A DNA stretch of 64,000 bases from Candidatus Saccharimonadales bacterium (GCA_040903985.1 JBBDUI010000002.1:198038-262037); one strand, 5' to 3'. Counted from the stretch's first letter, positions 30,636-56,200 are shown. A program made the numbers and translations. The notes: generated by a model from the letters alone, not told the origin.

Positions 30636-31029
30636 AATGTTGTTACAAAGACAGCACTAACATCGGTGCCTGAACTTGCAGGCCGAAAATAGCTGTAGTA
30701 ATTACTAATTAAGTTGGACGTGAATCAAAACACAAAAGACGTTGACCTATTAGTACACCTCGGCTAAACACGTTGCCGTGCGTACACCTAGTGCCTATCA
30801 AACAGGTGGTCTACCTGTGGTCTCAAACGAAACCTAGTCTTGTGGGGGGCTTCGTGCTTATATGCTTTCAGCACTTATCCCTGCCGAACGTAGCTACCCG
30901 ACACTGCCGCTGGCGCGACAATCGGTACACCAGAGGTTCGTTCACTCCGGTCCTCTCGTACTAGGAGTGACTCCGCTCAAGTTTCATCGCCCACACCGGA
31001 TATAAACCGAACTGTCTCACGACGTTCTA

Positions 31030-31078
<49 letters not shown>

Positions 31079-31088
31079 GATGCTCCTC

Positions 31089-31125
<37 letters not shown>

Positions 31126-31157
31126 AGCGCCGTCTATGTGGACTATTGGGCGCGATA

Positions 31158-31192
<35 letters not shown>

Positions 31193-31833
31193 GCGCTGCC
31201 GATACCACATTCATGTGTGTACCACGAAGGTACTAAAAACAGCGGATCACTAACTCCGACTTTCGTCCCTGTTCGGCTTGTATGCCTCACAGTCAAGCTG
31301 GCTTATGCGTTTGCACTATCATCTCGATTTCCATCCGAGACTAGCCAACCTTTGAACGCCTCCGTTACTCTTTAGGAGGCAACCGCCCCAGTTAAACTAC
31401 CCACCAGACACTGTCTCTCAGCCAGAAGCTAAGAACGATCTAATGTAAGTAATTACTAGTTTGTTGAAGTTAGGACATTTTACTCCGTATGTGTTGCTGT
31501 TTCTACATCAAAAATGTCACTAAATTCATAGTAATCACTTGATCATTCTCACCTTGTGGCTGAGATTAGAACAAAGATACACTGAGGGTGGTATTTCACT
31601 GGTGACTCCGCTCAAGCTAGCGCCTGAGCTTCAAAGTCTCCCACCTATACTGCACAAAGTGTACCCCAATCCAATGTCAAGCTGTAGTAAAGCTCCACGG
31701 GGTCTTTTCGTCCTGGTGTGGGTAGCCGGCATCTTTACCGGCAATGCAAATTCGCCGAGTCCTTCGTTGAGACAGTATTCAAATCGTTGCGCCATTCGTG
31801 CGGGTCAGAACTTACCTGACAAGGAATTTCGCT

Positions 31834-32607
31834 CAAATCTTAAGTTATATTTACTTTAGATACGCATGTTTTCTAGTGGCACGATTTCTCGCCACACCCT
31901 ATATCGCTATAGGGATCGGACTATATCTTCTCCATCTGGAGTCCGGCGTATAGTCTCTGAGGGTTCTAGTTCCGTATTTTTCGCCGATTCGTATTCGCCG
32001 CTAGTCGTCGTATCTGAACGAGACCCTCTATACTCAGATGTTCCTTTCTAGCTATCATTGCTATTACTTCACAGAAGATAATAAAATCTTGCTGTTTAGC
32101 AGTTTGTAATGGATAGACTTCAAAGAATGGAATTATCCTTTCCTGAATATCTCTAATAGATCTGACGCAGTAGCGATACAGTGGCTCACGATGGTTATCG
32201 TATCTCGTATTGACGTATATATTACCACAGCCAAAGAAAGATTGAATACTTTCTAAGACCGACAGGCTCTTAGCGCCTTGGGTTACTACAAACTCTGGAA
32301 ATACTGGATATCCAGAAAGAGTAGTAGCGTTTTTAAATACGCTGACTGCAAAACAGCCCTCCCCATCAACGAAACCGTTTATCCACCACGGATCTAGCCT
32401 TCCCTGCTGATTGTCCGCACCTGTCGCATTATTAGTTACCATATATTCAGTATACCGAACAGTATACGAACATACAATTACTAGCGCAGGATACTACAGT
32501 CCTTTTAGGACACGGGGTTTCCAGCATATAGCCAGATTTTCTTCTCGAAACCTCACACGAGAGGAAAAACGAGAAGAGGGTCATTCACCCTACTAAGGCA
32601 GCATTCT
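31834..32607 (-). mobile_element. group I-type intron in 23S rRNA (insertion between exon sequences ...GAATTTCGCT and ACCTTAGGACGG..., near E. coli position 1917), carrying a homing endonuclease ORF
   Basis: Conserved 23S exon sequence is contiguous except for about 775 nt inserted at a classical intron site. The insert encodes a LAGLIDADG protein in the rRNA sense orientation. The boundaries are ambiguous by about 2 nt. Confidence 0.8.
31966..32442 (-). CDS. LAGLIDADG homing endonuclease (single-motif, I-CreI-like size, 158 aa)
   Basis: ...LDPWWINGFVDGEGCFAVSV... is the LAGLIDADG motif. The ORF is embedded in the intron on the rRNA strand. Confidence 0.85.
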   Translation of the reverse strand: MVTNNATGADNQQGRLDPWWINGFVDGEGCFAVSVFKNATTLSGYPVFPEFVVTQGAKSLSVLESIQSFFGCGNIYVNTRYDNHREPLYRYCVRSIRDIQERIIPFFEVYPLQTAKQQDFIIFCEVIAMIARKEHLSIEGLVQIRRLAANTNRRKIRN

Positions 32608-34158
32608 ACCTTAGGACGGTTATAGTTACCGCCGCCGTTTACTGGGGCTTCAGTTCAGAGCTTGCACTCGTTCCCTTAACCTTCCAGCACTGGGCAGGCG
32701 TCAGCCCGTATACATCCACTTTCGTGTTAGCACGGACCTGTGTTTTTAGTAAACAGTCGCTTGAGTTCTTTTACTGCGGCCCTACACCCTAAAAGGGTGC
32801 GGGGCAGGCCTTATCCCGAAGTTACGGCCGTTATTTTGCCGAGTTCCTTAACGAAGGTTCTCTCGTACACCTTGGTCTACTCGACCTGAGCACCTGTGTT
32901 GGTTTGCGGTACGGTTAGCTATGTTTATACGTATCGCGTCTTTTCCGGTCGGTTTGGCTTGCGCAACTCTCCCGTAATCGGGATCGCATTCGTGCTTCAC
33001 CTCCACAAAAGTGGAAACTAGACACTTAGACAGTTATAGCCAAAAAACTGCTTGCGCTACCATACCGCACAACGCGATACAACAACATCACTAGTACGGG
33101 AATATTAACCCGTTGTCCATCGCCTACGCACTACGCCTGGGCTTAGGACCGACTAACCCTGAGATGATTACCATGGCTCAGGAAACCTTGCTCTTTCGGT
33201 GGAAAAGATTCTCACTTTTCTTATGGCTACTAATTCCAGCATTCTCACTTCCTTGCGCTCCAGCTGGCCTTCCGGCTCACCTTCAACGCTGCAAGGAACG
33301 CTCCTCTACCACTCCAGTATGAGACAAAACCTACGGTTTCATCTCAAGTTCACTTACGTTCACTGCTCTTTTTCCCTGATAGTGTATTTCACTTCGAATT
33401 TATGCGAAAATTATTCGTTCATATCTTAATCAGAAATCAATAAGCACAACTATAAGCTTAGTCTCATACTAGAGTCCGCGATTTCGGTACCAAACTTAGC
33501 CCCGTTACATTTTCCGCGCAGAATCACAATCGATTAGTGAGCTGTTACGCACTCTTTAAATGAATGGCTGCTTCTAAGCCAACATCCTAATTGTCTTTGC
33601 GACTCTACCTCGTTTCCCACTTAGTTTGGATTTAGGGACCTTAATCGGCGGTCTGGGCTGTTTCCCTTTCGAGCGCGGAGCTTAGCCCCCGCGTTCTAAC
33701 TGCTGTGCTTCCACGATCGGTATTCGTAGTTTGACAGGGATGGATACGGTTGCCCGCTCCAGACCCAATCAGAGCTCTACCTCCAACTGCTACCACACAA
33801 CGCTAGCCCTAAAGCTATTTCGAGGAGAACCAGCTATCTCCAGGTTCGATTAGCATTTCACCGCTATCCACAGGTCATCCAAACACGTTGCATTGTGTCC
33901 TGGTGCGGCCCTCCACGAACTGTTACGTCCGCTTCAGCCTGCCCATGGATAGGTCACCTGGTTTCGGGTCTACTTCATAAAACTAATTTCGCCCTATTAA
34001 GGCTCGCTTTCACTACGCCTACTCCGCTTATGCGGATTAAGCTAGCTTTATAAAGTAACTCGCTGGATCGTTCTACAAAAAGCACGCCGTCACCCCGATA
34101 AATCGGAGCTCCGACTCCTTGTAGGCACACAGTTTCAGGTCTATTTCACTCCCCTTAC

Positions 34159-34201
<43 letters not shown>

Positions 34202-34980
34202 ATCATACATCATATTTAGTCTTGGAAGGTGGACCTCCCAGATTCAGTCAGAGTTTCACGTGTTCCGACCTACTCGAGATAAAAAACATAAGGTTGCTAC
34301 GTTTTCGGATACGAGGCTTTCACTCTCTTTGGCAGTCCTTTCCAGAACTTTCTCCTAACCCAGCAATTTGTAACCTTACAGATCTATGACAGTCGATCTT
34401 CATCTCGATATCATCTCTAGCGATAACTATTTATCAACCAGAGATGATATCGAGAGTCGTCTAATATCTCACAACCCGATACAAGTATTCGCCTGTCAGC
34501 TTATTCGTGTAAGTTAATACTCGAAAACTTATATCGTTTAGACTGTTTCCCTTTCGCTCGCCACTACTGAGGAAATCGCATATGCTTTCTATTCCACCGG
34601 GTACTAAGATGTTTCAGTTCCCCAGGTTCCCTCGCACTATCCTATATATTCAGATAGCGGTGACTCTGTATTACCAGAGCCGGGTTTCCCCATTCGGACA
34701 CCCCCGGATTATAGCTCGTTTGGCAGCTCCCCGAGGCTTATCGCAGCCTACTACGTCCTTCGTCGGTGAATGTATGTCAAGGCATCCGCTGTGCGCCCTT
34801 TCTCGTCTTTTGCATTACCAAGAACTGTTGAAGTTCTTGGATTTCACACCAACTTAATTAGCAAATAGTACAGCTATTTGCTAAATGTTTGTTAACGTTC
34901 TAAGCTCCCTAAAAATGCAAAGCCTAAATGACTGCTGACCCCTATAATCGGCAATCACTTAAGCTCATAGCGCAAGCTGG

Positions 34981-35010
34981 ATTGTATCACAGGAAAATAA
35001 CGCCTGTAAA
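34981..35010 (-). promoter_or_regulatory. candidate sigma70-type promoter for 23S-5S transcription
   Basis: On the minus strand: TTTACA, an 18-nt spacer, then TACAAT. This sits about 150 nt upstream of the 23S 5' end and immediately downstream of the NOX-like gene stop. Confidence 0.5.
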
Positions 35011-35077
35011 TACCTCTGATACTTTGGTTTTTATCTTTCCCCTCATTATAGAGTGGATAGCCCTAGCCGTCCAGTAG

Positions 35078-36394
35078 CTAGAAAGAGAACTCTTCGTAGT
35101 GCAGACGATCCTCGTCGATTCCAGCAGCAACGAACTGCTTACGCAGACCGTTTAACATCGGTGGTGGACCACAGATAAAGATAGCGGCGGCCTGGATGTC
35201 CGCTCGCTGCTGTAGCAACTCTAAATTCATGAATCCCTCCCGCTCCTCACAGATGTGGTGCATTCGAAAGCCGGCATGGCGCTTAGCCACTGCGGTTAGC
35301 TCCGTATGAAATAAGGCGTCGGTGTCTGACTTAGTACAGTAGAAGAAGTCGATATCGTACCGCAGCTTATCCGGAAAACTCCGCACCATACTGAGGAACG
35401 GCGTGATACCGATGCCACCGGCGATCCAGATCTGACGACGACTAGTTGAGTTGAGATAACTAAAATTGCCATATGGGCCGTCGACAATAGCTCGGACGCC
35501 AGGATGCACCTCCCCGATCTTAGCCGTGTAATCCCCCAAATTTTTAACGACGAAGCCAAGCTGACGATCGTGACGGCTCGAGCTAAAGGAGAACGGATGC
35601 GCCTCTCGTTGTACCGCAGCATCCCGCATACTCAAGTAGCCGAACTGACCCGGTCGAAAACTGACCGGATGCCAGCTCGGCTGCAGAATAATCTCAGTGA
35701 TGTCTTCCCCCAGATGGTTAACCGCCTCTACCCGGTAAGGGTACTTTTTAGTTAACCATTCTCCCAGAACCGAATGATACAGATAACTGAGAGCACCGAT
35801 GAATGTCACGATCAGCATATACCGCCGTAAAGCCGGGTTATCCAGAAGATGACCGCTAGCTAGGAAGGTGTGCAGGGCGGCCGGTACCAACAACAGCCCC
35901 AGTAAACGGTGAACCGTCAAAAAGGTTTGATATGGTAGTTTATACAACACTGTCGCTGTTAAGAGAGCGGCCATGCCCAAGAAAGCGATTACTCCCCATG
36001 TAACCACCGCGTCGACCCCCGGTACCCACATTCGCAGTGCTCCCAGTGGAGCGCTCATAGCGATAGCCGCTGTGATCGCTACAGCGTGTACGGCAATGGC
36101 GATAAAGCTATAGCTACCAAAGATACGATGTGCCTTATAGGCCTTATCTAAACCAAGAAAGAGCTTATCAATCGATTTCAGTCGCGCCCCCAACACCAAC
36201 GACCACATAAAGCTAGCGAAACCGGTAAATGCCCCCACTTTAGCCACGACAGTTAAGCCATGGCGGAGAGTTGACACCTCACCGATTAGCTCGGGCAGCC
36301 TAAGCCACAGGTAAAGCGGTATGATAAGGGCGACGCTCAGACTGACACTCCAGCCCAGGCTACGTCGCAATCGATTCCGTATATCTTCTCTCAT
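35078..36394 (-). CDS. ferric reductase/NADPH-oxidase-like (NOX/FRE family) flavocytochrome: 6-TM ferric-reductase domain fused to FAD- and NAD(P)H-binding domains
   Basis: His-containing TM helices, an FAD-binding HPFSFSS motif, NADPH-binding GGIGITPF, and CGPPPM. Confidence 0.7.
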   Translation of the reverse strand: MREDIRNRLRRSLGWSVSLSVALIIPLYLWLRLPELIGEVSTLRHGLTVVAKVGAFTGFASFMWSLVLGARLKSIDKLFLGLDKAYKAHRIFGSYSFIAIAVHAVAITAAIAMSAPLGALRMWVPGVDAVVTWGVIAFLGMAALLTATVLYKLPYQTFLTVHRLLGLLLVPAALHTFLASGHLLDNPALRRYMLIVTFIGALSYLYHSVLGEWLTKKYPYRVEAVNHLGEDITEIILQPSWHPVSFRPGQFGYLSMRDAAVQREAHPFSFSSSRHDRQLGFVVKNLGDYTAKIGEVHPGVRAIVDGPYGNFSYLNSTSRRQIWIAGGIGITPFLSMVRSFPDKLRYDIDFFYCTKSDTDALFHTELTAVAKRHAGFRMHHICEEREGFMNLELLQQRADIQAAAIFICGPPPMLNGLRKQFVAAGIDEDRLHYEEFSF

Positions 36395-36415
36395 TAAGCT
36401 GTATTATGGCATATC

Positions 36416-36445
36416 ATAACGCCTGTCGCTAGCGACAGGCGTTAT
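36416..36445. terminator. perfect palindromic hairpin (CATAACGCCTGTCGC-TAGC-GACAGGCGTTATG) between convergent or adjacent genes, probably a terminator
   Basis: 14-bp perfect arms located between the 36473 stop and the 36394 start. Confidence 0.5.
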
Positions 36446-36472
36446 GATGCTTTGACCGAATCCAAACTGATA

Positions 36473-37327
36473 CTAGGCGGGACCGGTAGTTGGCAGCTGC
36501 TCTGGACCGGTGGTTGGAATCGCTTCCGGTTCAGGCTCTGGTTCTGGCACCGGCTCAGGCTCGGGCTCGGGTTCCGGTTCAGGCTGAGCTGCGACTATTA
36601 CTAGCTCGCTAGAGCTATCGTTTTGCCCCTGCAGCACTCCGTTATCGGCTGTGGCCGTCACATTATACGTGCCGGCTGCCAGTTCCTGCGTTATCTCTAC
36701 GGACCATGTACCATCAACCGCTAATTCGGCTTCATACTCTTCGCCATCTACCAAAACTGTCACAGTAGCCTCTGGGTCATCTACTGTACCGGTTACTGTC
36801 GGAGTAGCATCCTCAGTCTCAATCCCGTCAACCTCTACCTCGATCACCTCTGGCTCTGAGTCTGGAGTGGCTACCGGCTCTTGGACAGTCGGCCCCTCTG
36901 AGCTAGCATCACTCCAAAAGAAGTACCAGCCCGCACCGCCCAACGCTACTAATAAGATAAGAGCACTAAGCGCAATTAAGATCCACTTGTGCGACTGAGA
37001 TGGCTGCTCCATATAAGCACCCGTATTATTAGCTCCAGTTTGGAGTGGAAAGCTCGAGGACTGAGATTGATCTAGGCGGGATGAAACGTCACCATTAGCA
37101 GATGAGGCGCCATATGCTGCCGGGTCACCCATGGTTTGATCTGTGCTTGACTCGGCAAAGCGATCTGGACCAGCTAAATTAACTTCGGCTGGATTAGCCG
37201 CCGGAAGTGGGCTGGTGTCAAAGCTGGTATCGACCGGTGGTGTTACTCCTGGAGACGGGGGCGACGTATTAGGAACATCCGGGGTGGCTGCTGCTGGTTG
37301 TGGCAAATCTGGTTTTTCTTCTGGCAT
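36473..37327 (-). CDS. membrane-anchored low-complexity protein: Pro-rich N-terminus, single TM, Ig-like/acidic domain, (PE)n repeat, C-terminus ...LPTTGPA
   Basis: TM segment WILIALSALILLVALGGAGWYFFW, PEPEPEPEPEPVPEPEPEPE, and a terminal LPTTG with no following hydrophobic tail. Confidence 0.5.
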   Translation of the reverse strand: MPEEKPDLPQPAAATPDVPNTSPPSPGVTPPVDTSFDTSPLPAANPAEVNLAGPDRFAESSTDQTMGDPAAYGASSANGDVSSRLDQSQSSSFPLQTGANNTGAYMEQPSQSHKWILIALSALILLVALGGAGWYFFWSDASSEGPTVQEPVATPDSEPEVIEVEVDGIETEDATPTVTGTVDDPEATVTVLVDGEEYEAELAVDGTWSVEITQELAAGTYNVTATADNGVLQGQNDSSSELVIVAAQPEPEPEPEPEPVPEPEPEPEAIPTTGPEQLPTTGPA

Positions 37328-37472
37328 ATTGAACTCTTTTTATATTATTAGTTTTTATTTCTAACTTCTATACTTACGTTCAACTATATACGTAAGCGGA
37401 TTGCCTTGTCAAGCTCTAGGTCGCTATCGCCACGAGTTGGCGACATTTTTTGTTTTGTGGGACAATAACAGC

Positions 37473-38015
37473 ATGAGAAAGCTAACCACCTACTTCATTA
37501 AAGGGCTGCTCTTCCTTCTGCCGATCTTACTGGTTATTACCCTAGTGCGAGAACTGTTCTCCATCGTCTTGCCTACAGGGGTGGGATTCATAAGCGGCGT
37601 AACTACTCTCGGCATAGCTATCCTAATTACTACTCTCGTCGGAGCTGTAATAACTGGCGGACTTCAGCCTTACTTTAAACGCAGAGCTCTCCGTGGCCTG
37701 GGCAAGTTCCCCTTTCTGAACCAGATATTTACCTCAATGAAACGGTTTGTACTAATCCTCAACTTCTCCCGGGAAATATTTGAAAACCCGGTTATAGTAA
37801 CCCGCGAGGAAGGTCGTGAGATAAAATTCGGCTTTGTAACTCGCTCAGGTCTGGAGCAGTTTGGTCTCAGCCAGCACTCTAGTGTCTATCTGCCCGATCC
37901 ATTCTCCTTCTTAGGCGAGATGGTAGTGGTAGCTAACAAAGACTTGAGGCCAGTAGAAGGGAAACGATCAGAGGTATCGAACTTCATCTTATCCGGGGGA
38001 CTAGTACAGAAATAA
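37473..38015 (+). CDS. DUF502-family membrane protein
   Basis: About 180 aa from the internal Met (MRKLTTYFIKGLLFLLPILLVITLV...), with two N-terminal TM segments and a conserved C-terminal domain typical of COG2928/DUF502. Confidence 0.55.
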   Translation: MRKLTTYFIKGLLFLLPILLVITLVRELFSIVLPTGVGFISGVTTLGIAILITTLVGAVITGGLQPYFKRRALRGLGKFPFLNQIFTSMKRFVLILNFSREIFENPVIVTREEGREIKFGFVTRSGLEQFGLSQHSSVYLPDPFSFLGEMVVVANKDLRPVEGKRSEVSNFILSGGLVQK

Positions 38016-38110
38016 AGACGCATTTGCGCCTGCACCATACAGATGCGCCCGAGGAGTAGGGCTTCGAAGGTCTACCGCCTGGGTCTGATCTGGTCGGTTC
38101 TCAAGTATAT

Positions 38111-38162
38111 TCTCCACCAAGAAAAGAGTCCGGCTGACGCCGAGACTCTTTTCTTGGTGGAG
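38111..38162. repeat. 20-bp perfect inverted repeat (TCTCCACCAAGAAAAGAGTC ... GACTCTTTTCTTGGTGGAGA) overlapping the 3' CCA end of tRNA-Ala
   Basis: It can form a long hairpin incorporating the tRNA 3' terminus. This may be a processing or termination element. Confidence 0.6.
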
Positions 38163-38231
38163 ATGGAGGGACTCGAACCCTCGACCCCCTGCTTGCAAAG
38201 CAGGTGCTCTAGCCAACTGAGCTACATCCCC
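38155..38231 (-). tRNA. tRNA-Ala (anticodon TGC), CCA encoded
   Basis: Sense sequence GGGGATGTAGCTCAGTTGGCTAGAGCACCTGCTTTGCAAGCAGGGGGTCGAGGGTTCGAGTCCCTCCATCTCCACCA gives a cloverleaf with a CTTTGCAAG anticodon loop. Confidence 0.92.
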
Positions 38232-38304
38232 ATGCTTGAGTAATTTTAAAGGTATGGCTACCCCTAAGCACGTACCAGAGTATACAATAAATATAATCGT
38301 AAAA

Positions 38305-38541
38305 CTATATTCTCGGCTCTAGCTTTTCCCAGAAAGCCTCGGCCCGTACTTGATAGCCGCGACTATTAGGATGAAACCAATCAGCTGCATAATCAAGCAG
38401 GGGGTTAAGCTTGCCCCTAGTCGCCTCATATAGCGGAACGAAGACCAGGCCATTTTCAGCGGCAGCAAGTCTTATTATCCGGCTAGCTGATTCTGCCTTC
38501 TGATTAGTCTTACTGCTGCCGAAGCTAGGCACACCAGCCAT
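38305..38541 (-). CDS. short ORF resembling the C-terminal block of an SGNH/GDSL hydrolase (DxxH motif); possible gene fragment
   Basis: ...DYAADWFHPNSRGYQVRAEAFW... resembles SGNH block V. It is only 78 aa long. Confidence 0.35.
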   Translation of the reverse strand: MAGVPSFGSSKTNQKAESASRIIRLAAAENGLVFVPLYEATRGKLNPLLDYAADWFHPNSRGYQVRAEAFWEKLEPRI

Positions 38542-38801
38542 TACAAGATGTCGCTGGCAAGCGTCGACTGGCCGTCGCCCTTGATCGCCGCCTTGAGTTC
38601 GTCCAGTGTCGTGGCGGCCTCGACGGCGGCGAGGAGCTCAGCTCGTGGGTCTGGTCGCGTGGCGATCGCCTCGTCATAGGCAGCCTGCAACGTAGTTTCG
38701 TCCGGCTCGTCGCCGTGGACGGTCAACGTCTCACCTACCTTTGTGTAGGCGATGCCGAGATGGGCTAGGGCGCACTTGCGCTGTGTGGTGTCCAATGCCA
38801 T
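38541..38801 (-). CDS. hypothetical protein, very G+C-rich, translationally coupled to the upstream tail-fibre-like gene
   Basis: 86-aa ORF whose start overlaps the stop of the 38801-40129 gene. G+C is far above the window average. Confidence 0.45.
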   Translation of the reverse strand: MALDTTQRKCALAHLGIAYTKVGETLTVHGDEPDETTLQAAYDEAIATRPDPRAELLAAVEAATTLDELKAAIKGDGQSTLASDIL

Positions 38802-40129
38802 CAGGAACGTACCTCCGTGAGTGTCATCAGCGCCCCCGCTATGATAGATGACTCCACATTTGGTGACCCGGTCGGCCAGGGGCCGTGCTCTAGACGGTAG
38901 GTACGGGTGGCCGTCGATCCCGGTTCGTGCTCGCCTTCGAGCGCAATCGGGGAGTAGAACGTGGCCGTTTCGCTGGACGATGCAAGCAGACGGTGACCAC
39001 GACGCTCGTTGGTGACCACCTCGTCGCCAGTCGTGTCGCGGATTTGCACGACACCGTTGCGGTTAATCGAGCTACCGGACACCACCGAGTAAGTAACCTG
39101 TCCCGAAACGCGGGCGAGGATGATCGAATCGGCGTACGCTGGCATGATCGTGGCTTCGAGACCGGAGTCTTGCGGCGTGTCGGCGGTAGTGTCCGAGTCG
39201 CTACCCAAGGTCGCAGTGACGACCTGCACCACAGACGCACTACTCCCAATCGCCTGATCATGCTCGGTGATGGCTTGTTGGACATTTACGGCTGTGGTGT
39301 GTTCCAGGCCGGTCGGGTCAAACTCGATGTTGGTAGCTGGGTGGGCGTCTGCTACGGCCTCATGATTAGTGATAGCTGTAGTAGCGGTACCGGCAGGATC
39401 AGCTCCTACATCACTGGCATCCAGAGAAACAATACCGGTATCACCGTTGACAGACTGGACGGGGGCTTCGGCTGCTGTGATGAAGGTAGCGGAGTGAGCT
39501 TCATTACCATGCTCGGTTGGAGTACGGGTAGCACTGGCATCATCTAGGGTGGCATCACTAATCTTGGCGTTGAGGGCAGCTAGGGTGGTAGCACTGTGTT
39601 CGATACCACCTAGTGAGTGACCTTTCGGTACTTGGGGGTCGGCTAGTTCGCCGGAGAGGCCATCGACGTTCAGTTCATCAGTTCCGCCGGATTGGTGGGT
39701 GGTGGTGTGGTTAGCTACATCACTAGCATCTAGAGTTACTGCTCCGGTCTTAGAGTTGATGCTTAGTACGGGGGCAATAGCAGCTACCCAGGTGCTAGTG
39801 CCACTATCGTAGGTTAAGACATCTTGATCACTGGCAGTATCGGTATCGGTATCATCTAGGGCGGCTAGAGAGGAGCCGACACCTGGGAGTCCATCAACAT
39901 AGGCTTTAGTGACGGCGTCTTGAGGGGTGGTAGGGTTGGCTAGTCCGACAATCTTGTTTCCGCCTAGGGATAGCTCTCCGCCCATAGTATCGCCACTGCG
40001 GTTGAGCTTCTGAGTTAGCTCAGTACCACGTTTGAGGGAGCCATCACTAGCTAGTTCGACACTGAGGTATTCGTTGAGGATGTCTCCCCATGTTCCTTCG
40101 TCTGATCCGGGGATTGGTAGTCGTGGCAT
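38801..40129 (-). CDS. phage tail-fibre-like protein
   Basis: The N-terminus has the classical tail-fibre motif ...SGDTMGGELSLGGNKIVGLANPTTPQDAVTKAYVDG.... Repeats SINSKTGAVTLDASDV and SVNGDTGIVSLDASDVGA follow. The 3' half and the downstream ORF are much more G+C-rich than the window, which suggests a chimeric or foreign origin. Confidence 0.65.
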   Translation of the reverse strand: MPRLPIPGSDEGTWGDILNEYLSVELASDGSLKRGTELTQKLNRSGDTMGGELSLGGNKIVGLANPTTPQDAVTKAYVDGLPGVGSSLAALDDTDTDTASDQDVLTYDSGTSTWVAAIAPVLSINSKTGAVTLDASDVANHTTTHQSGGTDELNVDGLSGELADPQVPKGHSLGGIEHSATTLAALNAKISDATLDDASATRTPTEHGNEAHSATFITAAEAPVQSVNGDTGIVSLDASDVGADPAGTATTAITNHEAVADAHPATNIEFDPTGLEHTTAVNVQQAITEHDQAIGSSASVVQVVTATLGSDSDTTADTPQDSGLEATIMPAYADSIILARVSGQVTYSVVSGSSINRNGVVQIRDTTGDEVVTNERRGHRLLASSSETATFYSPIALEGEHEPGSTATRTYRLEHGPWPTGSPNVESSIIAGALMTLTEVRS

Positions 40130-40231
40130 TATACTTTAGCTTCAATGTTTAGTTGCTATGTACCCAATATAGAGTGGTTGTGGTTATCTGGCAACTGGTG
40201 GGAGGTGGGAGTTATTATCGATTGGGGTCAT

Positions 40232-40262
40232 CCGGGACTCGAACCTGAGGCCTCGTCATTAG
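40232..40262 (-). pseudogene. degenerate partial copy of a tRNA 3' half (T-arm GGTTCGAGTCC plus part of the anticodon stem)
   Basis: GGGACTCGAACCTGAGGCCTCGTCATTAG parallels GTGGACTCGAACCACGGACCTCGTCATTATCAG of the adjacent tRNA-Ile. It cannot fold into a full tRNA. Confidence 0.6.
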
Positions 40263-40305
40263 GTCTCGCTTTGCTCGATAAAGCATAATAATTTTTCAAT
40301 CCAAA

Positions 40306-40383
40306 TGGTGGGGCTGCGTGGACTCGAACCACGGACCTCGTCATTATCAGTGACGCGCTCTAACCAGACTGAGCTACAGCCCC
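40306..40383 (-). tRNA. tRNA-Ile (anticodon GAT), CCA encoded
   Basis: Sense sequence GGGGCTGTAGCTCAGTCTGGTTAGAGCGCGTCACTGATAATGACGAGGTCCGTGGTTCGAGTCCACGCAGCCCCACCA. Confidence 0.92.
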
Positions 40384-40410
40384 TCCATTTGGATTGAATT
40401 ATAAAAGTAC

Positions 40411-40560
40411 GAAACAGTGACGCGCTCTAACCGGGCTGAGCTAATCGCCCTCCAGCTGTATTTTACTATCTTCAGAATACACAGTGACGCACACTAGCTG
40501 GGCAGCTGTGTCCGCCATAGCCCCCAAGCGACGGCGGAAGCTAATCGCCCCTATAAAAGC
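40411..40560 (-). repeat. two tandem, progressively degenerate copies of the tRNA-Ile 5' half plus its upstream flank (remnants)
   Basis: Positions 40414-40460 match the tRNA 5' half: CAGTGACGCGCTCTAACC identical, then ...GCTGAGCTAATCGCCCTCCA. Positions 40478-40560 repeat ACAGTGACGC... and ...GCTAATCGCCCCTATA with an internal insertion. Confidence 0.65.
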
Positions 40561-40718
40561 ACACCTTATTGTAACCAGAAATCACCTCCTGGGGCAAGTC
40601 GGAATTACTGGTATCGATATTATTTATGTTTAGTAGTCATTTAAACAACAATCACCCTGTCATTCGACAGGGTGATTGTTTGTAGCTTTAAGTGCTTAGA
40701 CTGTGCAGCATAACCAAC

Positions 40719-40848
40719 CCCGCACCTGAGATGCAGGCAATAGCATAAGCTATTGCGACTCGGCTAGCCCTAACTTTCTAATGAAATAGCTAGGAACTAG
40801 TTACAGCTAAAGTTCTTGCGAACTTTACTGCATTTCAGGTGCGGGGCC
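40719..40848 (-). ncRNA. structured spacer element downstream of 16S: 19-bp long-range stem enclosing two hairpins (candidate processing element or small RNA)
   Basis: CCCCGCACCTGAGATGCAG at 40719-40737 pairs with CTGCATTTCAGGTGCGGGG at 40830-40848. Internal hairpins are GCAATAGC-ATAA-GCTATTGC and CTAGC...GCTAG. Confidence 0.4.
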
Positions 40849-40959
40849 GACCTTGGGATCTATCACTAACTCGACCCTTCGTTCCCACCAATGGCGGGAC
40901 CTTATCTTCGAGCGTAATAGGTCTAGTTTCGATTATTAATCGAAACGGTTTTCCCTAGA

Positions 40960-42445
<1,486 letters not shown>

Positions 42446-42866: not shown

Positions 42867-45800
42867 CTACTCGGTAGCTGTCGGGCTAGAGAAGCCGGCC
42901 CCAATTACGTGGTAGTCAAAGCTGTATTCGGTACCAGCTGTCACCGGGACGGTAGTGACCAGCATGAACCCTGCGGGAGTCGACTTCACATACACCTCCA
43001 AGCTAGTAGCGGCGGCATTTCTAGCCGAAATCGTGACTCGGGGCGGGAAGGTGTAAATTTGAGAGAAGTCGATCCGCGCTAACTCATACTCATTAGTCTC
43101 CACCACGCTCTCTGATACCACCACATTAATAGTTCCGGCTACATCAGTTCCGCTTAAACTAACTGTACCGCCTTCTAGATCAGCCCCGGAACTGGCTTCT
43201 GGGGTGTTACCGGTGCTGAGAAGATGTCCTCCTATACTTAAGTTCATGCTTACTCGTACTGCTGAGACACTAAGAGTACCCCCGATCACCACATCTCCGG
43301 TCACCTCTAAGCTAGCCAGCGTACTAGCACCACTCACGTTCAAGCTTGAGAAGTCAACTTGCTCACCACTATCCTGTACGCTTTCGCTGGCTTGCTGTAA
43401 TTGTGGTATATAGTTCTCAGTCTTCACAAAGACCATCACTGAGCCGACGTCGCTACCACTGTAACTCTCTAGGGCATAGCCGACAATTCGTGCCGGATCA
43501 CTAGCTTTCATTCCGACCCCTGGAGTTTCAGAGAGGGTAATGGGGTCGCCTACAGCTATGCTGCCATTCTCTGTGGTTACATTTACTGGCACCCGACCGA
43601 CTAGGGCAAGCGGTGCGCCCTCGGTCTTCGAAGCTAAGACCAAACCAGGCTCAGTAGAGATAATCCCAGCTAGAGACACGCTCGTGGTAGCTCTCACTAA
43701 CTTGCCTTCGGCGTTAAAGGCCACGATGTCACCGGGCTCAACCGGCTCGGCGGTGGCATAATGCTCAGCAACGTCGGCAGAAGTATCGGTTAGGAAAGCA
43801 TGGGCCCGCACGTTACCGGAAACAGTTAACTTGCTATCGGGAGAGGTGGTGCCGATACCTACATTTCCGCCCTGGATGAGAGTATTGGCGTTAGCGTCAA
43901 TCGTAAAAGCGTTAACCGTAGTCTCTTGGTAGTTGCTGATAGTTTCGCCATGAGAGACCACTGCAGCATAGGGCACGATCGGATTAATTATAGTTGGTAA
44001 CACCGTGCTGTTGGTTGGGCTATGACTGCCTACAGACGGGCTGACTGTAATTGATTCGGGCGAGATGTCAGTCTCCTCAAGCTCAATATCTTCACAAATA
44101 TCACCGCACCCCTCGATGTTAACCAGGCCATGAAATTTAGCCGCCATGAAATCGCTACCACCTGTACCGTAGCTAGACGTAATGCCAGCCACCACATACC
44201 CTCCATCACTAGTCTGGCGAGCAGATCGAATTTGATCGCTACTGGTGCCGCCCACTACCCTAGTCCACTCTTCAGCTCCACTGGAGTTAAACTTAATCAA
44301 CATAAAGCTGTTATTGCCCGGCCCATAGCTGGCGGTATAGCCGCCTAGAATGTAGCCTCCGTCACTAGTCTGCTGTACTGATTGAACGACATCACTACCA
44401 GTTCCACCCGCTACCTTAGTCCACTCATGAGCTCCATCAGAGTCGAGCTTAACCAGCATAAAGTCGTTACTACCGGCACCGTAACCGGAGGTATAGCCTC
44501 CAATGATATAGCCCCCGTCACTAGTCTGCTGTACGGACTGGGCTGTTTCGCTACCGGTGCCACCTATCACTCTTGTCCACTCATGAGCTCCATTGGAGTC
44601 GAGCTTAACCGTCATAAAGTCGCCACTGCCCGCACCATAGCTGGAGGTAGAGCCGGTCAAGATGAAGCCACCGTCACTGGTATAATCCATATCATTCGTC
44701 GTATCACTACTACTTCCTCCGATCGCACGTGTCCAGAGACTCACGCCATTACTATCGAGTTTGGTTATATTAAAATCATTACTACCCCCGGTTGTAAAAG
44801 TAGAGCTATACCAAGAGATGGCATAGCCTCCGTCACTGGTCTGTTTTACAGTAGAAGGCGATGACTCACTACTGGCGCCACCCAGTGTCTTACTCCAGCT
44901 AACCGCTCCATTAGCCGTAAATTTAATAACCATTAGATCGTAACTTCCCGCCCCCAAACCGTTAACTCGTCCCGAAGCGATATATCCCCCATCTGTAGTT
45001 AAATCTACCGAGTAGCCAATGTCACTACTGGTGCTACCCAGTACGGTCGACCATTCCAGCTGACCGAATACGTTAAGCTTAGAAAGCATCCAGTCGCCAC
45101 TACCCGCACCGTATGAGTTAGTCTCTCCCACAACGATATAACCACCATCACCGGTCTGACGGATTGAATAAGCCGAATCACTGCTCGTCCCGCCCCATGC
45201 TGTTATGAAACTCGATGTGCTTGTGCCGATATTTGCCCGAGTAGTCACGCGTAGAGCATCACGACTTAGATCGGTATGATCTATCTCCAGCCGACCTCCT
45301 AAACGAGTGTTGCCTTCTACGCGAAGATCCTCTTGAACAAATAGATCCCGGTCCAGGCGGGTATCGCCACCAACTCGAGCATCGCCCTCAACTAAAAGGT
45401 TACTAGTATGCGTCTGGCCGTTCGTTATCTTTACTACGGTCAGAGCGTCTGCCCCGCTACTTGCGATATATGCATAGCTGTCGGCAACAAATAACCCACT
45501 AGCACCTGCTAAATCGCCATCACTTATGCTGCCCGTCTGAGTCGGTGCAGCTGGGTCGACCACATCGACGACCGCTAACGTGCCCGTAGTGTCACTTGTA
45601 ACATACGCGTAGCCACCGCTGAAGAACACTTCGCTAGCGCCGGTCAATTCGGCCGATGTCACCGTGCCCACCTGGGATACTGCGGCCGGATTAGTAATGT
45701 CAATTACTGTTAACGAACCGGCTGTGGCGCTGGCCACGTAAGCATAGTCTCCACTCACAGCCACGCTTCTAGCCCCATTCAAATCAGTATTAGCTATGCT

Positions 45801-47015
45801 ATCGACTGTGCTTAAGGCGGCCGGATTAGTAATATCGATTACTGTTAACGAACCGGCTGTGGCGCTGGCCACGTAAGCATAGTCTCCATTCACAGCAACT
45901 CCCCGGGCGCCTACCAAATTAGCGGAGCTAAAGCTGCTAACTTGAGTTAAATCATTTGGATCACTGATATCAACAACCGTTAGGCTACCAGCATAATGAC
46001 TAGCGATATATGCATAGTTCCCACTAATAGCGATATCGCTAGCGCCTTCGAGATCAGTATTATTAATGTAAGTATCTACCTTAACAGGAGTAGTAGGATC
46101 GCTAATATCGATCGAGACGACAGAATCCGCATGGAAGCTGGCCACGTAAGCATAATCTCCACTTACGGCTACCCTTCTAGCACCATTAAGCTCGACCGCA
46201 TCCGATACGCTACCGACCTGGGCTAGCTCATCAATATAGCTAACATCAACTATCGTCAACGCATCGGCCTCAGAGCTTGCCACGTAGGCATAAGAGTCCC
46301 TAATAACTACTCCACTTGCCCCGACAAGTCCGGCAGTAGTTAAAGCCCCAGAGGAAGACAAGCTCGAGTTAGTAGCCACTCGCAATATATCCTGTCCGCT
46401 ACTAGTCTTAACAGCCAGAGCACTCGCTACCGGTGCGACTGAACGAACAGATGCCTCTCCATATACATCGAGTGCCACCTGCGGGCTGCTAGTACCAATG
46501 CCGAGACGACTACTAGTATTATCCCAGTGGAAGTTACTATTACCAGTTAAAGAGTCACTCCCATCAAAGAAAGCGATCTGGCCCACACTACCGCTACCCT
46601 GAAGGCCACCACTACCACCACCAGGACAGTTACCAGAGGCATCGCAGACTTGATTGCCATTTTGGAGTAAGCTGGTAGCTGTTATCTGCTGGAAGGTATT
46701 ATTGCCACTAAAAGTATTGTTCGCATTAAGAAAGGCTACATTACTACTTAAAGCTCCGTCAGCTACCGAACCTGCGCTCGAAATTGTCAGATCCTCATCC
46801 ACCTCACTATTCTGAATCGACTGTCCCAATAGCGAGACACTCGCATCAAGCCGAGCGTTAGACAATGTACCAGTACTTATATTACTAGCATTGGTAAAGT
46901 AGGAGCTTGTATTCCCTCCTAAGCTTGCTGCATTAACGTTAGTGAGATTAGCTCCGTCACCCTGGAGACTACCCGCGATCAAGGTACCAGATATATTGAT
47001 ATGCCCTGACTGCAC
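42867..47015 (-). CDS. giant surface protein: Gly-rich N-terminus, about 10 LVIVD-type beta-propeller repeats (SGDYAYVAS...LTVIDI), about 9 SBBP-type repeats (TSDGGYI...YGAG..D), and a C-terminal tail-fibre-like region ([16 protein letters not shown])
   Basis: The repeats are periodic at both protein and DNA level. It probably starts with GTG and is probably the continuation of the upstream collagen-like ORF. Confidence 0.6.
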
Positions 47016-47664
47016 CGTCCTGACCGTCAGCTCCGGCTGGTCCTTGGGAGCCGGTCGGACCCTGAATACCCGCGGGCCCCTGAGGTCCGATAGGCCCTTG
47101 TGAACCAGTTGCCCCTTTTGCGCCGGCTGGACCTGAAGGACCAGTCGGGCCTTGTGGACCAGTGGCTCCCCTAGCTCCGGTCGCGCCTACGCTACCGCTA
47201 GCAATTACTCCATCCGAATCATCCGCTACAGCAGATTCATCGTTATCCTCCTCTACATCGTCAGCAGCTGGGCTGTCAGACTGTGAGGCTACCAGCTCCT
47301 CTGTAGCTTTACTTAAGTTCTCTACTTGAAGTGCTAATTTATCTTGTTGAGCGTCAAGTCTATCTTGCTGTAACGAGATTTCCCGCTCTGATTGCTGGCT
47401 GTTAGCCGCCGGCATAATACTCCTCATAGTCCACATCTGCGAAACAAGTAGTACTACTACCGCGATGCTGACAGCTATAACGGTAGCATGACTGGTGTTA
47501 TGCGGAGTGTAGGGCGGATAGTTATGGGGTGGGTATGGACCTGCGGTGCCCTGGGGATGATACGGCGAACCGACTACCGGTGCAGCCTGATTCGTGGGCA
47601 TATCAGGGGCTGATTGCTGATTATAATCGTCTGGCAAAACTGAGTTTTGTTGCTCGGGATTCAT
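46969..47664 (-). CDS. membrane-anchored collagen-like protein (Pro-rich N-terminus, single TM, coiled coil, about 20 Gly-X-Y triplets); likely the N-terminal part of the giant protein
   Basis: TM segment [17 protein letters not shown] and [58 protein letters not shown]. The last 14 codons are non-collagen and overlap the next ORF in another frame. Confidence 0.65.
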
Positions 47665-53236: not shown

Positions 53237-56200
53237 CTAACCTTGATGGACCTTACCTTCATCGTCGATATATATCTCACCCGGTTGCAGCTTGGGAACG
53301 GCTGACTCGGTAGGGTTACTCTCAGCAGCTTCGGGCTTAAGCGGTTTTTGCTCCGGCATCACTACCCCGGTACCAAACGGCGAGACTAACGGCTCACTAC
53401 TATCATCGGGGGTAGACTCTTCCGGCGGCACTGGCTGAGGCTGTACCACGTTTGCCTCCGGAGCTTCCGACTGTTGTAGGCCTGCCTCAGCCGTTTCGCT
53501 AGACTCAGGCCTCGCCTGAGCAGCTGTAGCGGCCGACTCAGCCGGCTCTACATGGGGCTCATCCCCTGCCGGCACTAATGGAAGAACACTACTATCCGTC
53601 TGCTCCACGTCGGAACTCGCGGACGCAGTAGAGATGTCACCCTCCACTTGAGCCGGCAGCTCGGGCAAATCAGGTGACTTAGGCGTAGATTGATCTGCGT
53701 CCTCTTCCTGCTGCAGCGCGGCTGAGGGTGGCGCTGGGAAAGATAGTGGAGACGGGGGTGTAAAAGTCTGGGAGTCACCGCTAGGAGGGGATGAAGCCGG
53801 GGCAGAACTGAATGATATAGGCTCAGGAGTAGATAGGTTCGGCGACTCAGACGGTGCGGGCGGCTGAGTCTGAGCCGATTCAGATACACCGCTACTCTTA
53901 GGAGCTGCCTGGTCGGCGTAGGTGGATGTCTGCTTAGGTGAGTGATCGGTTGGTTCAAGCTGAGGTCTAGGGGCAGACTGAGAAGCCGCTTGCTGCAATG
54001 TGGCACGACGTTTATCAAGCCACTCGTCTAAGAACGAAGCTGAAGCAGCCCCCCCGCTAGCTCCTGGACTGGCGGATGGCCCGGAACCACTCCCCAATGG
54101 CGGACCGGTCGACTCCCGGGAGTTGGTGGCTAAACTCTCAAACGGACTTGGAGCCGGTTGTGAGGCTACCCGATCGAATATCTCCTTCTCTACTTCAGCC
54201 CGAGGACGACCGTACTTAGCGGCCGAAAGCTTCTTCAGCGCCTGAGCTAACTGCGGCTTAGACGAAGCTAGCGGCGGCAAGGCAGCAATGTTAAACGGCT
54301 GAGTCGGTAACCCACCGCTCATCAATCGAATCGCAGCGTTAAAGTTAGGCAGGTTGACTAGATCACGCTCGTTAAAGGCCGGAGCAAACTGCTTCACTAG
54401 AAAGTCGGCATCGGCCGGACCGGTGCGGTAGCTAATAATAGTACCGACATTACCGAAGACCGCATCGCGAATCTCATCGCTCAACTGGGAGATAAACTGG
54501 TTAGCTACGATCAGGTTCATCCGGTACTTCCGTGCCTCGGACAGAATGAAAGCAAATGACTCGGTCGAAAAGTTCTGGAACTCATCGACGTAGAGAGAGA
54601 AATCTTTTCGCTCATCTTCCGGTACATTAGCCCGGCTCATAGCGGCAGCCTGGAATTTCATAACGAAAATCATACCGAGCAGCTGAGAGTTAAGTTCACC
54701 TAGGCGCCCCTTACTAAGGTTAGCGATTAGGATCTTATTACTATCCATCAGCTCACGCAGATCGAAAGCGCTCTTAGTCTGACCGATAGTGTTACGCATC
54801 AACTGGTTACTTAAGAAGGCACCAAACTTAGAGACGAACCAACTCACCACTTCACCAAAATCGTTAGAGCGCTGAGATTGTGGCATCTCCTTTTGCCAGA
54901 ACTCGCGGACCGACTGGTCCGTCACGTGCTTGAGCTTTTGCCGCACAAACTGCGGATCGCGGAACAGCTTCGGAATATCGACGAAGGTACCGCCGGCCGG
55001 ATCGGCCATGACCGTTAATGCGGCATTACGGAACAAGTGTTCATAGCGCGGACCGATGATACCGGTATGCTGCGGGTCATACAGGCGATAAAGCATATTA
55101 ATAGCTTCCTGAATCAAGAAGTCTTTCTGATCCTCCGTCCGGTATTCAAAGATGTTCAGTCCCATCGGGGTATCCATGTTGCCGGGATCGAAATAAATAA
55201 CGTCCTCACTCCGTTCCGGTGGCACCATGCCGAGCAAACGTTCGGCCTCATCACCATGCGGATCGACGAAGGCGAAGCCCTTACCATCCATCATATCCTG
55301 CACCATCATGTTTGATAGCGCCGTCGTCTTACCGGTCCCGGTCTGCCCCACGATATAGACATGACGCCGACGGTCTTCATCGCTGAGACGAATCTCCTTC
55401 TTTACACCATGGTAGGAATTGTGGCCCAGCATCACTCCATCTTTACTGAGCCGGGTCGGTCCTTCCACCTGCTTGGAAAACTGCCGCTGCAGCTGAGTCG
55501 TCTTAGTAAACTGATCGTCCGGCAGGTGGAATAGGGTGGCTAGCTCCACGCTGTTGAGTACCATCTTAGCTCGCTCTGGCGGGAAGAAACGGAAGATAAA
55601 ATCGGTCACAAACTTCTCGATACTCTTCGCCGGCTCGAACTTGAAGCCGTTTAGTCCCGGCGCATCGAAGAGGGAGAAGGCCGAGATGACGTTATGAGTG
55701 ATCGACTGGGCTCGCGTAGCCGTGCCAGAAGAGGCGATCACTCGAATTAAAACTTCATAGCCGGAAGACTTGGTCTTCTCCTCGATCGCATCTAGCATCG
55801 ACTGCTCTAAGCTAGTTAGCTGTTTAGGAGGCTTCGGACCGCTGTCCTTGTCCCCGCTCTCTGGCGCCTTAAAGGGAGCTTGCAATAGCGACTTAGCTGA
55901 AATGCCGGACGAGCCCTTATCGTCTCGCTTCTGCTTCACGATGTGCTCGGACGACTTTGTCCAACCTTCCCGCGCCGGCCGCACCAGTATCTGCAGACTA
56001 GCTCCATCCCCCTGCTCCAAACTGGTGAGAGACTTAATCACGGCCTGCATAGCATCCCGTTTCAACTGATTAACCGTAGCGATCGGATAGGAATAAGCCT
56101 GTTTTAGCTTAATCTCACCGCCGTAGGTACCTGTAATCTTACCGGTAGCCGAAAAGATATTATGGTCTTCGACCTCTTCCAGCTGAGCGCCCGGATAGGC

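Follow-up and report, generated by a model that had tools for sequence, protein, structure and literature searches.

Tail fibres and other receptor-binding proteins of phages are modular: an N-terminal anchor is followed by a shaft of repeats and, at the C-terminus, by a tip that can be exchanged through horizontal transfer. Examples are the mosaic fibres of the lambda Stf and T4 gp37 type and siphophage proteins having a head domain of their own, such as the BppL of the lactococcal phages TP901-1 and Tuc2009. Fibres of this kind also occur outside phages: Bdellovibrio bacteriovorus, a bacterium living off other bacteria, encodes in its chromosome the phage-fibre-like MAT proteins (Bd2734, Bd2439; ~600-1,100 aa), which serve in prey recognition, for which surface display and glycan binding have been shown by experiment and whose paralogs carry swapped C-terminal tips, some of them with TNF-like lectin folds (PMC10769870). 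Moreover, expanded or unlinked rRNA loci containing protein-coding genes have been reported in bacteria of the candidate phyla radiation (CPR), among which the two Saccharimonadia genomes included were operonic and the spacer genes named were homing endonucleases (PMC8172020). Here we describe a 64-kb segment (hereafter, the window; overall G+C content 51.7%) from the chromosome of a Candidatus Saccharimonadales bacterium (Patescibacteria), in which a gene for a 442-aa tail-fibre-like protein lies between the tRNA-Ile and tRNA-Ala genes of an rRNA locus. Tail-fibre mosaicism, TNF-like tips, gene-bearing CPR rRNA loci and predator-encoded phage-like fibres are all known; what is new is the sequence family of the tip, the joining of this tip with a trunk resident in Saccharibacteria, and the site between two spacer tRNAs, which PMC8172020 does not describe.

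The rRNA locus runs on the minus strand in the order 16S, tRNA-Ile(GAT), three open reading frames (ORFs), tRNA-Ala(TGC) and a 20-bp hairpin, beyond which come a DUF502 gene that is convergent (plus strand), the genes for a Big_13 surface protein and for a ferric reductase, and the 23S and 5S genes. With 6,146 nt between 16S and 23S and six ORFs in between, one of them on the opposite strand, this is an expanded locus and not a plain spacer. The three minus-strand ORFs between the tRNAs, which we will call the cassette, encode the 442-aa fibre (38801-40129), an 86-aa protein (38541-38801) and a 78-aa remnant of an SGNH hydrolase (38305-38541). These ORFs and the tRNAs, as well as the tail-fibre motif and the VNGxTG-type repeats of the fibre, are all present as described in the original prediction, a reading of the window made from its sequence alone.

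For comparison, 120 rRNA-linked loci, mostly from Saccharibacteria, were chosen by the 16S 3' end of this lineage. The gap from tRNA-Ile to tRNA-Ala measures 2,074 nt here and 4-548 nt (median 65.5) in the 66 other loci having both spacer tRNAs, nearly all of them Saccharibacterial. The closest relative found, L094 (16S 97-98.8% and 23S about 93% identical), shows the empty site that had been proposed as a check: 16S, 183 nt, tRNA-Ile, 12 nt, tRNA-Ala, ~1 kb and 23S. In none of the 120 loci did tblastn detect a counterpart of any cassette gene (fibre, 86-aa ORF or SGNH piece) or of DUF502, and a scan of genome contigs with the neighbouring DUF502 found nothing. The 2,074 nt between the spacer tRNAs are a lineage-specific insertion, the distal boundary of which is the tRNA-Ala gene (38155..38231, minus strand; ARAGORN and Rfam), 95% identical to that of L094. 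A Big_13 homolog sits between tRNA-Ala and 23S in both L094 and L028, and the presence of this gene at the rRNA locus appears to be ancestral.

Codons 1-299 of the fibre gene (39235..40129, minus strand), delimited by BLASTP and blastn and by a G+C content at third codon positions (GC3) of 0.47, encode an N-terminal module and a repeat shaft of native composition, in line with the window-typical 5' part noted previously. The translation carries the tail-fibre motif GDTMGGELSLGGNKIVGLANPTTPQDAVTKAYVDG at aa 46-80 and two repeats of the VNGxTGxVxLDASDV type (aa 123-140 and 225-242). These stretches match tail-fibre and minor-tail PHROGs (phrog_2710, 4.6e-6; phrog_2952, 4.9e-6) and, in tblastn searches, annotated tail-fibre genes of cyanophages and roseophages with 53-58% identity, all of them matches confined to the short motifs and repeats and not extending over the full length. 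A scan of IMG/VR with the whole fibre protein gave one weak shaft match only, another that started from an alignment yielded no relatives, and NCBIfam has no family for any cassette protein. The PHROG matches, the phage tail-fibre genes and the baseplate context of one shaft homolog, to which we will return, place the protein in the phage tail-fibre world, as had been proposed.

The best database match to the fibre is P0001 (WD467_03345), encoded in the main contig of the same ~747-kb genome, in an AT-rich island adjoining an MmeI-type restriction-modification gene and away from the rRNA loci. It was also considered as an ortholog in a relative, an option rejected on the evidence of the ferric reductase, which is 100% identical and is found on the same 747-kb contig record; P0001 is hence a same-genome paralog. 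Fibre and P0001 have residues 1-60 (95% aa identity) and 135-299 (88%) in common; the corresponding DNA is 91% (40129-39978) and 87% (39732-39234) identical between the window and the contig L001 of P0001, and the homology stops at 39234, the exact point where the G+C content rises. Over the 225 common codons of the trunk, the ratio of nonsynonymous to synonymous substitution rates (dN/dS) is 0.13 with a dS of 0.50; therefore, both copies have been maintained as coding genes, and they did not separate very recently. At its C-terminus, P0001 has a Gly_rich_2 domain, different from the TNF-like tip of the window copy, so that two stand-alone paralogs of one genome have trunks ~90% identical in amino acids and unlike tips. 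The Gly_rich_2 tip of P0001 (L001 10700-11400) reaches 63-70% G+C within an island of 31-43% G+C, with a synonymous codon usage shifted by ~2 standard deviations (sd), and may have been imported as well.

The compositional break within the fibre gene falls at about codon 300 of 442. From there, a block of 693 nt (38541..39233, minus strand) takes in the tip domain as well as the 86-aa ORF; its 62.4% G+C is the highest of all 693-nt windows in the 64 kb (mean 51.7%, sd 3.4; ~3 sd above). The proposed sliding-window analysis has thus confirmed a distal enrichment, found as the maximum of the whole 64 kb, whereas two further details of the original prediction need correction: the value is slightly below two-thirds G+C, and the enriched part is the 3' third and not the 3' half of the gene. 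At third positions, GC3 goes from 0.47 in codons 1-299 to 0.715 in codons 300-442 and 0.77 in the 86-aa ORF, compared with 0.58 (sd 0.045, maximum 0.69) in background genes. Codon usage was also scored as synonymous-codon log-odds between a high-GC phage model and a window model, conditional on the amino acid. The two coding parts of the block score -0.003 and -0.048, ~4 sd apart from native genes (-0.70, sd 0.17), while shaft, SGNH stump and neighbouring genes all have native values.

A rise of this kind could, in principle, be native and due to amino-acid content or to a local mutational bias, without any transfer, and the tip of P0001, G+C-rich as well and partly so through its glycine richness, speaks for such an origin. 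The shift, however, is seen at synonymous sites inside a single gene (GC3 0.47 versus 0.72-0.77) and in log-odds that are conditional on the amino acid. Its edges are sharp, one at the end of the homology with the paralog and the other at the SGNH stump, and the block corresponds to a two-gene module, both genes of which have homologs, arranged likewise, in a phage contig. We regard a native origin of the rise as extremely improbable.

The imported tip itself (codons 300-442; 38804..39232, minus strand), with a TNF/C1q-like jelly-roll fold, looked at first sight like an orphan, as a word-indexed homolog search with residues 294-442 (149 aa) returned nothing. This status was rejected after a full HMMER search, which recovered 83 homologs with up to 45% identity. 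The family is not in Pfam, PHROGs or NCBIfam, and tblastn against 50,697 deposited phage genomes gave no match for the tip, the SGNH stump or the P0001 tip. They are short proteins (~160-340 aa) in which the domain is always C-terminal and the N-terminal parts vary, some of these being Mtd_N, BppL_N, Phage_T7_tail or one of many tail-fibre PHROGs. The contigs with members of the family have 65-72% G+C, and the window tip retains all the invariant residues of the family. In the phage contigs L135 and L132-134, the tip-family genes come after the tape-measure and large tail genes. The best match, P0168, is encoded in L135, a siphophage contig of 70.8% G+C with the order tape-measure protein (8e-33), 404-aa gene, P0168, 97-aa ORF, 55-aa ORF, holin and Amidase_3, followed further on by repressor- and excisionase-like helix-turn-helix genes and WhiB. 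To our knowledge, WhiB-type regulators are confined to Actinobacteria and their phages.

The 86-aa ORF (38541..38801, minus strand), the ATG of which overlaps the TGA stop of the fibre (TGATG), has no match in Pfam, PHROG or NCBIfam. It does, however, match the 97-aa ORF that directly follows P0168 (E 3e-12; 82 aa aligned, 43% identical), and the foreign block is therefore a conserved pair of a tip and a small ORF, the latter being perhaps a fibre accessory protein or chaperone. The block extends from the boundary between shaft and tip to the stop codon of the small ORF, where it abuts the SGNH stump. Homology and composition together indicate that tip and 86-aa ORF derive from actinophage-type siphophages with high G+C and their gene pool; both the exchanged distal, putatively receptor-binding module and the actinophage-like donor of the original prediction are borne out. 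As for its timing, the exchange had been called recent; a dS of 0.5 to the paralog and a codon usage of the block intermediate between donor-like and native do not fit this. The GC3 of the block, 0.72-0.77 against 0.86-0.88 in the L135 homologs, suggests either partial amelioration or a less extreme donor. The whole arrangement is like that of modular phage fibres, with a breakpoint at the shaft/tip boundary and a tip that moves with a small downstream ORF; unlike them, the window gene stands alone in a cellular rRNA locus among housekeeping genes and outside any prophage.

High-G+C phage or actinobacterial reads misjoined into a Saccharibacterial rRNA locus during metagenome assembly could also produce a mosaic. 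Loci of rRNA are prone to assembly trouble, two assemblies disagree at 43 sites of the 16S part and the Logan contigs are broken around the locus. Two further assemblies, however, match the window at 100% through the block. The first, the metagenome-assembled genome GCA_040876815.1, belongs to the same organism, as shown by a ferric reductase protein 100% identical, and includes a 7,880-bp contig, on which the fibre gene is called too, that corresponds to window positions 34069-41950, with 34069-41039 being 100% identical; an exact look-up of the 442-aa protein nevertheless found no record. The second is an independent Logan contig equal to 38195-39275 at 100%, which crosses both block junctions, reaching 41 nt into the native shaft on one side and, past the SGNH stump, 37 nt into tRNA-Ala on the other. 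This agreement indicates that cassette and junctions are no assembly artefact. Moreover, the 5' junction is in frame and falls precisely on a domain boundary, that on the 3' side coincides with the stop of the 86-aa ORF, and the G+C and GC3 of the block, well under the values of its phage homologs, argue for amelioration in a new genome and not for a pasted read. A chimeric origin is very improbable.

Structure prediction of the C-terminal part, one of the checks suggested beforehand, gave a confident result. Modelled from an alignment of 33 homologs, the tip is an all-beta jelly roll of 12 strands with a predicted local distance difference test (pLDDT) score of 95.2, and a Foldseek search with this model agrees, retrieving 452 viral proteins from BFVD, many of them fibre or collagen-like. 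The full-length AlphaFold2 monomer model was too poor for use (pLDDT 51.7). The tip can be confidently assigned, at the level of the predicted structure, to the TNF/C1q-like class of jelly-roll lectin folds, a class compatible with glycan binding. The nearest known lectins of this type, PLTL from Photorhabdus laumondii (9IB6) and the N-terminal domain of BC2L-C from Burkholderia cenocepacia (2WQ4), are trimeric jelly rolls that bind fucosylated glycans at the interfaces between protomers. The window tip is like them in its predicted fold and has 11-13% sequence identity with them. PLTL and BC2L-C are either stand-alone domains or fused to other lectins, whereas the window tip sits at the end of a fibre.

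Downstream of the block, the 78-aa ORF covers only positions 123-178 of the 178 in the Lipase_GDSL_2 profile (1e-8), which agrees with the SGNH-like fragment reported before. The DWFH motif is kept, the GDS block with the catalytic Ser is gone, and the upstream frame holds stop codons: this is a truncated SGNH/GDSL hydrolase gene of which the C-terminal third is left. Its composition is native (G+C 0.506, codon log-odds -1.01). A former role of the stump as C-terminal domain of the fibre finds a weak PHROG hint only, and an SGNH domain is absent from all 47 homologs of the shaft. The simplest reading is that recombination replaced the module and overwrote either the 5' part of the SGNH gene or an earlier tip. 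The fibre gene is a mosaic in three parts, with a native trunk, a G+C-rich tip module and the SGNH stump, probably overwritten by this module.

An alternative history, where a phage or mobile element that infects the Saccharibacterium delivered the fibre gene whole, shaft and tip together, would place the tip exchange earlier and inside phages, and would make the two paralogs remnants of two related phages. Genes of Streptomyces phages match the N-terminal ~46 residues, both paralogs are found in variable regions (that of P0001 being the AT-rich island by the MmeI-type system) and the P0001 tip is G+C-rich too, all of which would fit. On the other hand, both shafts have native codon usage (log-odds -0.89 and -0.70, with a background of -0.70) and the tip block has not, and no phage genes accompany either paralog, in the window within the flanks scanned (~17.8-29.3 and ~42.9-60.9 kb). 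Homologs of the N-terminal motif in other genomes are also alone among cellular genes. In the three long contigs examined, that of P0001 included, the module MxxLPxPGxDxxxWGxILN stands singly, beside restriction-modification and defence-type genes (L001), beside uvrA, uvrC, tatA and secG (L127), and beside clpB, murT/gatD and NUDIX genes (L139). The distal parts of these N-module proteins vary, and are Gly-rich, DUF5907, pectate-lyase-like or, in the window copy, TNF-like. Taken together, an arrival in one piece seems quite unlikely to us.

The history of the tRNA-Ile region is a separate one, and bears on the other origin that has been advanced for the cassette. The intact tRNA-Ile(GAT) gene (40306-40383, minus strand; ARAGORN and Rfam) lies within a 153-nt insertion (40262..40414, minus strand) that splits an ancestral tRNA-Ile at the anticodon. 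On one side, the ancestral 5' half (positions 1-36, acceptor GGGCGAT; 40415..40450, minus strand) was recognised by comparison with relatives, being identical at 35 of 36 positions to the tRNA-Ile of L028 and at 34 of 36 to that of L094. On the other side lies a degenerate 3' half with positions 38-74 (40225..40261, minus strand), 31 of the 37 being identical in L094; direct reading shows mismatched acceptor and T stems and no CCA end. Only position 37 is missing between the two halves. The acceptor stem of the intact gene, GGGGCTG/CAGCCCC, is of a type found otherwise only in five distant loci, while GGGCGAT/ATCGCCC is present in L094, L028, L089 and 52 of 75 tRNA-Ile genes of the loci compared, which are mostly Saccharibacterial. 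The intact gene is flanked by a perfect inverted repeat of 14 nt, I1 (40295-40308 and 40385-40398), which is unique in the window and across all loci. Further upstream, the tRNA-Ile 5' half occurs once more as a degenerate and partial copy (copy A; 40482..40550, minus strand), with positions 1-12 of the ancestral type, which ends in GCGTCACTG and lies exactly 67 nt from the next copy, all three GCGTCACTG ends being spaced by 67 nt. The nested tRNA-Ile may represent a previously undescribed kind of tRNA gene replacement, where a foreign tRNA minigene was captured at a break in the anticodon. The reverse arrangement, with a functional outer tRNA and the inner gene as an intron, was rejected on account of the broken acceptor and T stems and the lack of CCA, although the outer flanks are still able to pair in the predicted fold.

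The original prediction saw in this region a decayed prophage or satellite, integrated at the 3' end of tRNA-Ile, with the tRNA 3'-half copy as the scar of an attachment (att) site and the fibre as functionless cargo. The copy is real, and spans the 3' half at 40225-40261 with tRNA positions 38-74. The cassette does share with tRNA-targeting integrative elements its tRNA-adjacent site, fragments that start in the anticodon loop and an empty site in relatives; the homology of the fibre to phage proteins and the truncated neighbouring gene would fit a prophage too. Unlike such elements, however, it has no integrase and no direct repeats bracketing it, and the fragments are two halves of one gene. 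No tyrosine or serine integrase was found near the tRNA among the ORFs of 36-43 kb or the scanned flanking genes, and the flanks scanned (~17.8-29.3 and ~42.9-60.9 kb of the 64-kb window) contain no phage gene and no integrase. The sole tRNA-Ile-like repeat downstream of the intact gene lies 44 nt after it and before the cassette, not beyond, and none was found at the tRNA-Ala end. The 3' half was accordingly rejected as attR, since it complements the upstream 5' half and has no distal repeat. Positions 1-36 and 38-74 are clean halves of one gene, with no duplicated core, and the acceptor of the intact tRNA differs on both strands, so that it is no attL hybrid. By this comparison, the 3' half is to be read as a piece of the broken ancestral tRNA-Ile and not as a duplicated att core. 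Finally, the ORFs are intact, the shaft has a dN/dS of 0.13 and all conserved tip residues are kept, which is not expected from functionless cargo. The spacer region is a rearrangement hotspot and an integrase-mediated origin of the cassette is unsupported; the partial tRNA-Ile copies would record separate rearrangements at this same hotspot. We therefore find a decayed prophage or satellite unlikely, and the domesticated adhesin, which the original prediction offered as an alternative, fits better, unproven as it is.

Our preferred explanation, which we hold to be probable, is a lineage-specific insertion with a mosaic fibre gene that the bacterium keeps as a contact fibre or adhesin with exchangeable tips. 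The protein would form a trimeric fibre, docked or anchored through its conserved N-terminal module, with the His-rich and VNGxTG repeats as shaft and the TNF/C1q-like tip binding cell-surface carbohydrate. The gene would belong to a set of two or more paralogs that differ in their tips, retained for the bacterium's own use, and the tips would be renewed by recombination with foreign DNA, in this case from a high-G+C phage. Intact ORFs, purifying selection, invariant tip residues and lone N-module homologs are what favours a resident fibre family over dead prophage cargo. In culture, Saccharibacteria live as epibionts on Actinobacteria, are naturally competent and depend on adhesins as an essential part of this lifestyle (PMC10633639), so that they would have the DNA of host phages at hand. 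Expression could take place by read-through from the 16S promoter or from the gene's own promoter-like site. Of all this, the insertion, the mosaic structure, the foreign origin of the tip module, the class of fold and the selection on the shaft are shown by the data, whereas the trimer, glycan binding, cellular use, the host of the donor and the way of uptake are inferences.

Several observations weigh against this explanation. The shaft homolog P0003 (E 1e-41) is found directly after Baseplate_J and Phage_Wedge1 genes in a contig of 65% G+C, that is, in the context of a true phage tail fibre, and the first ~46 residues of the fibre match phage genes from Streptomyces, which leaves some probability to an origin in a phage of the Saccharibacterium itself. 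Direct reading of the N-terminus (MPRLPIPGSDEGTWG...) reveals neither signal peptide nor membrane anchor, and therefore an adhesin would have no visible export route. The identity of the tip to its phage homologs is only 40-45%, too low to fix either the ligand or the donor's host, and WhiB indicates actinophages for one contig only. L094, the nearest relative with an empty site, is no sister strain, and the insertion cannot be dated from it. The neighbourhood also shows some decay, in the form of the SGNH stump and the tRNA pseudo-pieces.

The closest functional parallel to a resident fibre with exchangeable tips is the MAT family, which resembles the window fibre in being chromosomal, in occurring as paralogs with swapped C-terminal tips and in the TNF-like fold of some of these. 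There is no sequence homology between them (6% identity), the window fibre is known from sequence and model, and its tip, unlike those of MAT proteins, bears the compositional signature of a foreign (phage) origin. A broader hypothesis, where Saccharibacteria, as obligate epibionts of Actinobacteria, would keep phage-derived contact fibres and re-arm them with tips of host phages through natural competence, thus adopting the phages' own means of recognising the host cell wall, as a Patescibacterial counterpart of the MAT fibres, is attractive but doubtful at present.

We know of no players in host choice and attachment by ultrasmall epibionts other than type IV pili and a few adhesins. If the fibre is indeed a resident one with a tip from a phage of the likely host phylum, it would be a concrete candidate for a host-recognition determinant, and the import of tips would offer a route for quick changes in host range. 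If it is merely a stranded phage gene, the locus would amount to ordinary tail-fibre mosaicism in an unusual place. In a Saccharibacterial rRNA locus, moreover, the two spacer tRNAs can be a hotspot of insertion, which matters for amplicon methods based on 16S, internal transcribed spacer and 23S.

With regard to the remaining features of the locus, the 16S rRNA gene (40959..42443, minus strand; Rfam SSU_rRNA_bacteria, 1519 bits) is 98.8% identical to that of L094 over its 3' 992 nt. The transcription unit begins at this gene and runs through tRNA-Ile, the cassette and tRNA-Ala, a location that could provide strong expression. A promoter-like site (TTGCCA, 17 nt, TATATT; 10 of 12 matches) lies at 40166..40194 on the minus strand, 37 nt upstream of the fibre ORF; sites of this type are no more numerous in the region than in shuffled sequence, which makes it weak evidence. 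The perfect 20-bp hairpin (inverted repeat I2; 38111..38163, minus strand) uses the 3' end of tRNA-Ala and is likely a terminator or processing signal that closes the 16S-tRNA unit, facing the convergent DUF502 gene. The same hairpin is kept in L028 and beside a second tRNA-Ala copy of this genome (L001 18958-19099). The immediate neighbours of the fibre gene are rRNA, tRNA, DUF502, Big_13 and ferric reductase genes, with no tail or baseplate module. The scanned flanks are nearly all housekeeping genes (gyrA/B, pheS/T, infB, rpsA, priA, def/fmt, secD), the exceptions being one ORF for an ATPase like the coupling proteins of type IV secretion systems and two repeat-protein ORFs.

Some side observations concern the rRNA genes and the flanks. 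All 43 differences between the window and the NCBI contig JBBDOY010000001 are confined to the 16S part (41040-41895), where the window version is 98.8% and the contig version 95.4% identical to L094; one of the two assemblies probably holds a 16S segment from a co-occurring strain. The 23S gene (30731-34812, minus strand) is 4,082 nt long compared with a model of 2,925 positions, and contains a LAGLIDADG_1 homing-endonuclease ORF (31966-32442, minus strand; 3e-24), so that it probably holds one or more introns or insertions. Directly upstream of 16S, the region 42867-47664 (minus strand) encodes a 1,382-aa protein with LVIVD repeats or beta-propeller and an overlapping 231-aa collagen-triple-helix ORF; the two could be additional genes for surface fibres, or one gene whose start is shifted. 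The ATPase-like ORF mentioned above (53237-56590, minus strand; 1,117 aa) lies between gyrB and pheT and has weak matches to type IV coupling proteins and HerA-like ATPases. Lastly, the phenylalanyl-tRNA synthetase beta chain (57127-59895, minus strand) includes an NlpC/P60 peptidase-like domain (aa 451-545, 3e-15) between B3_4 and B5 of PheT, an unusual insertion in a core enzyme of translation.

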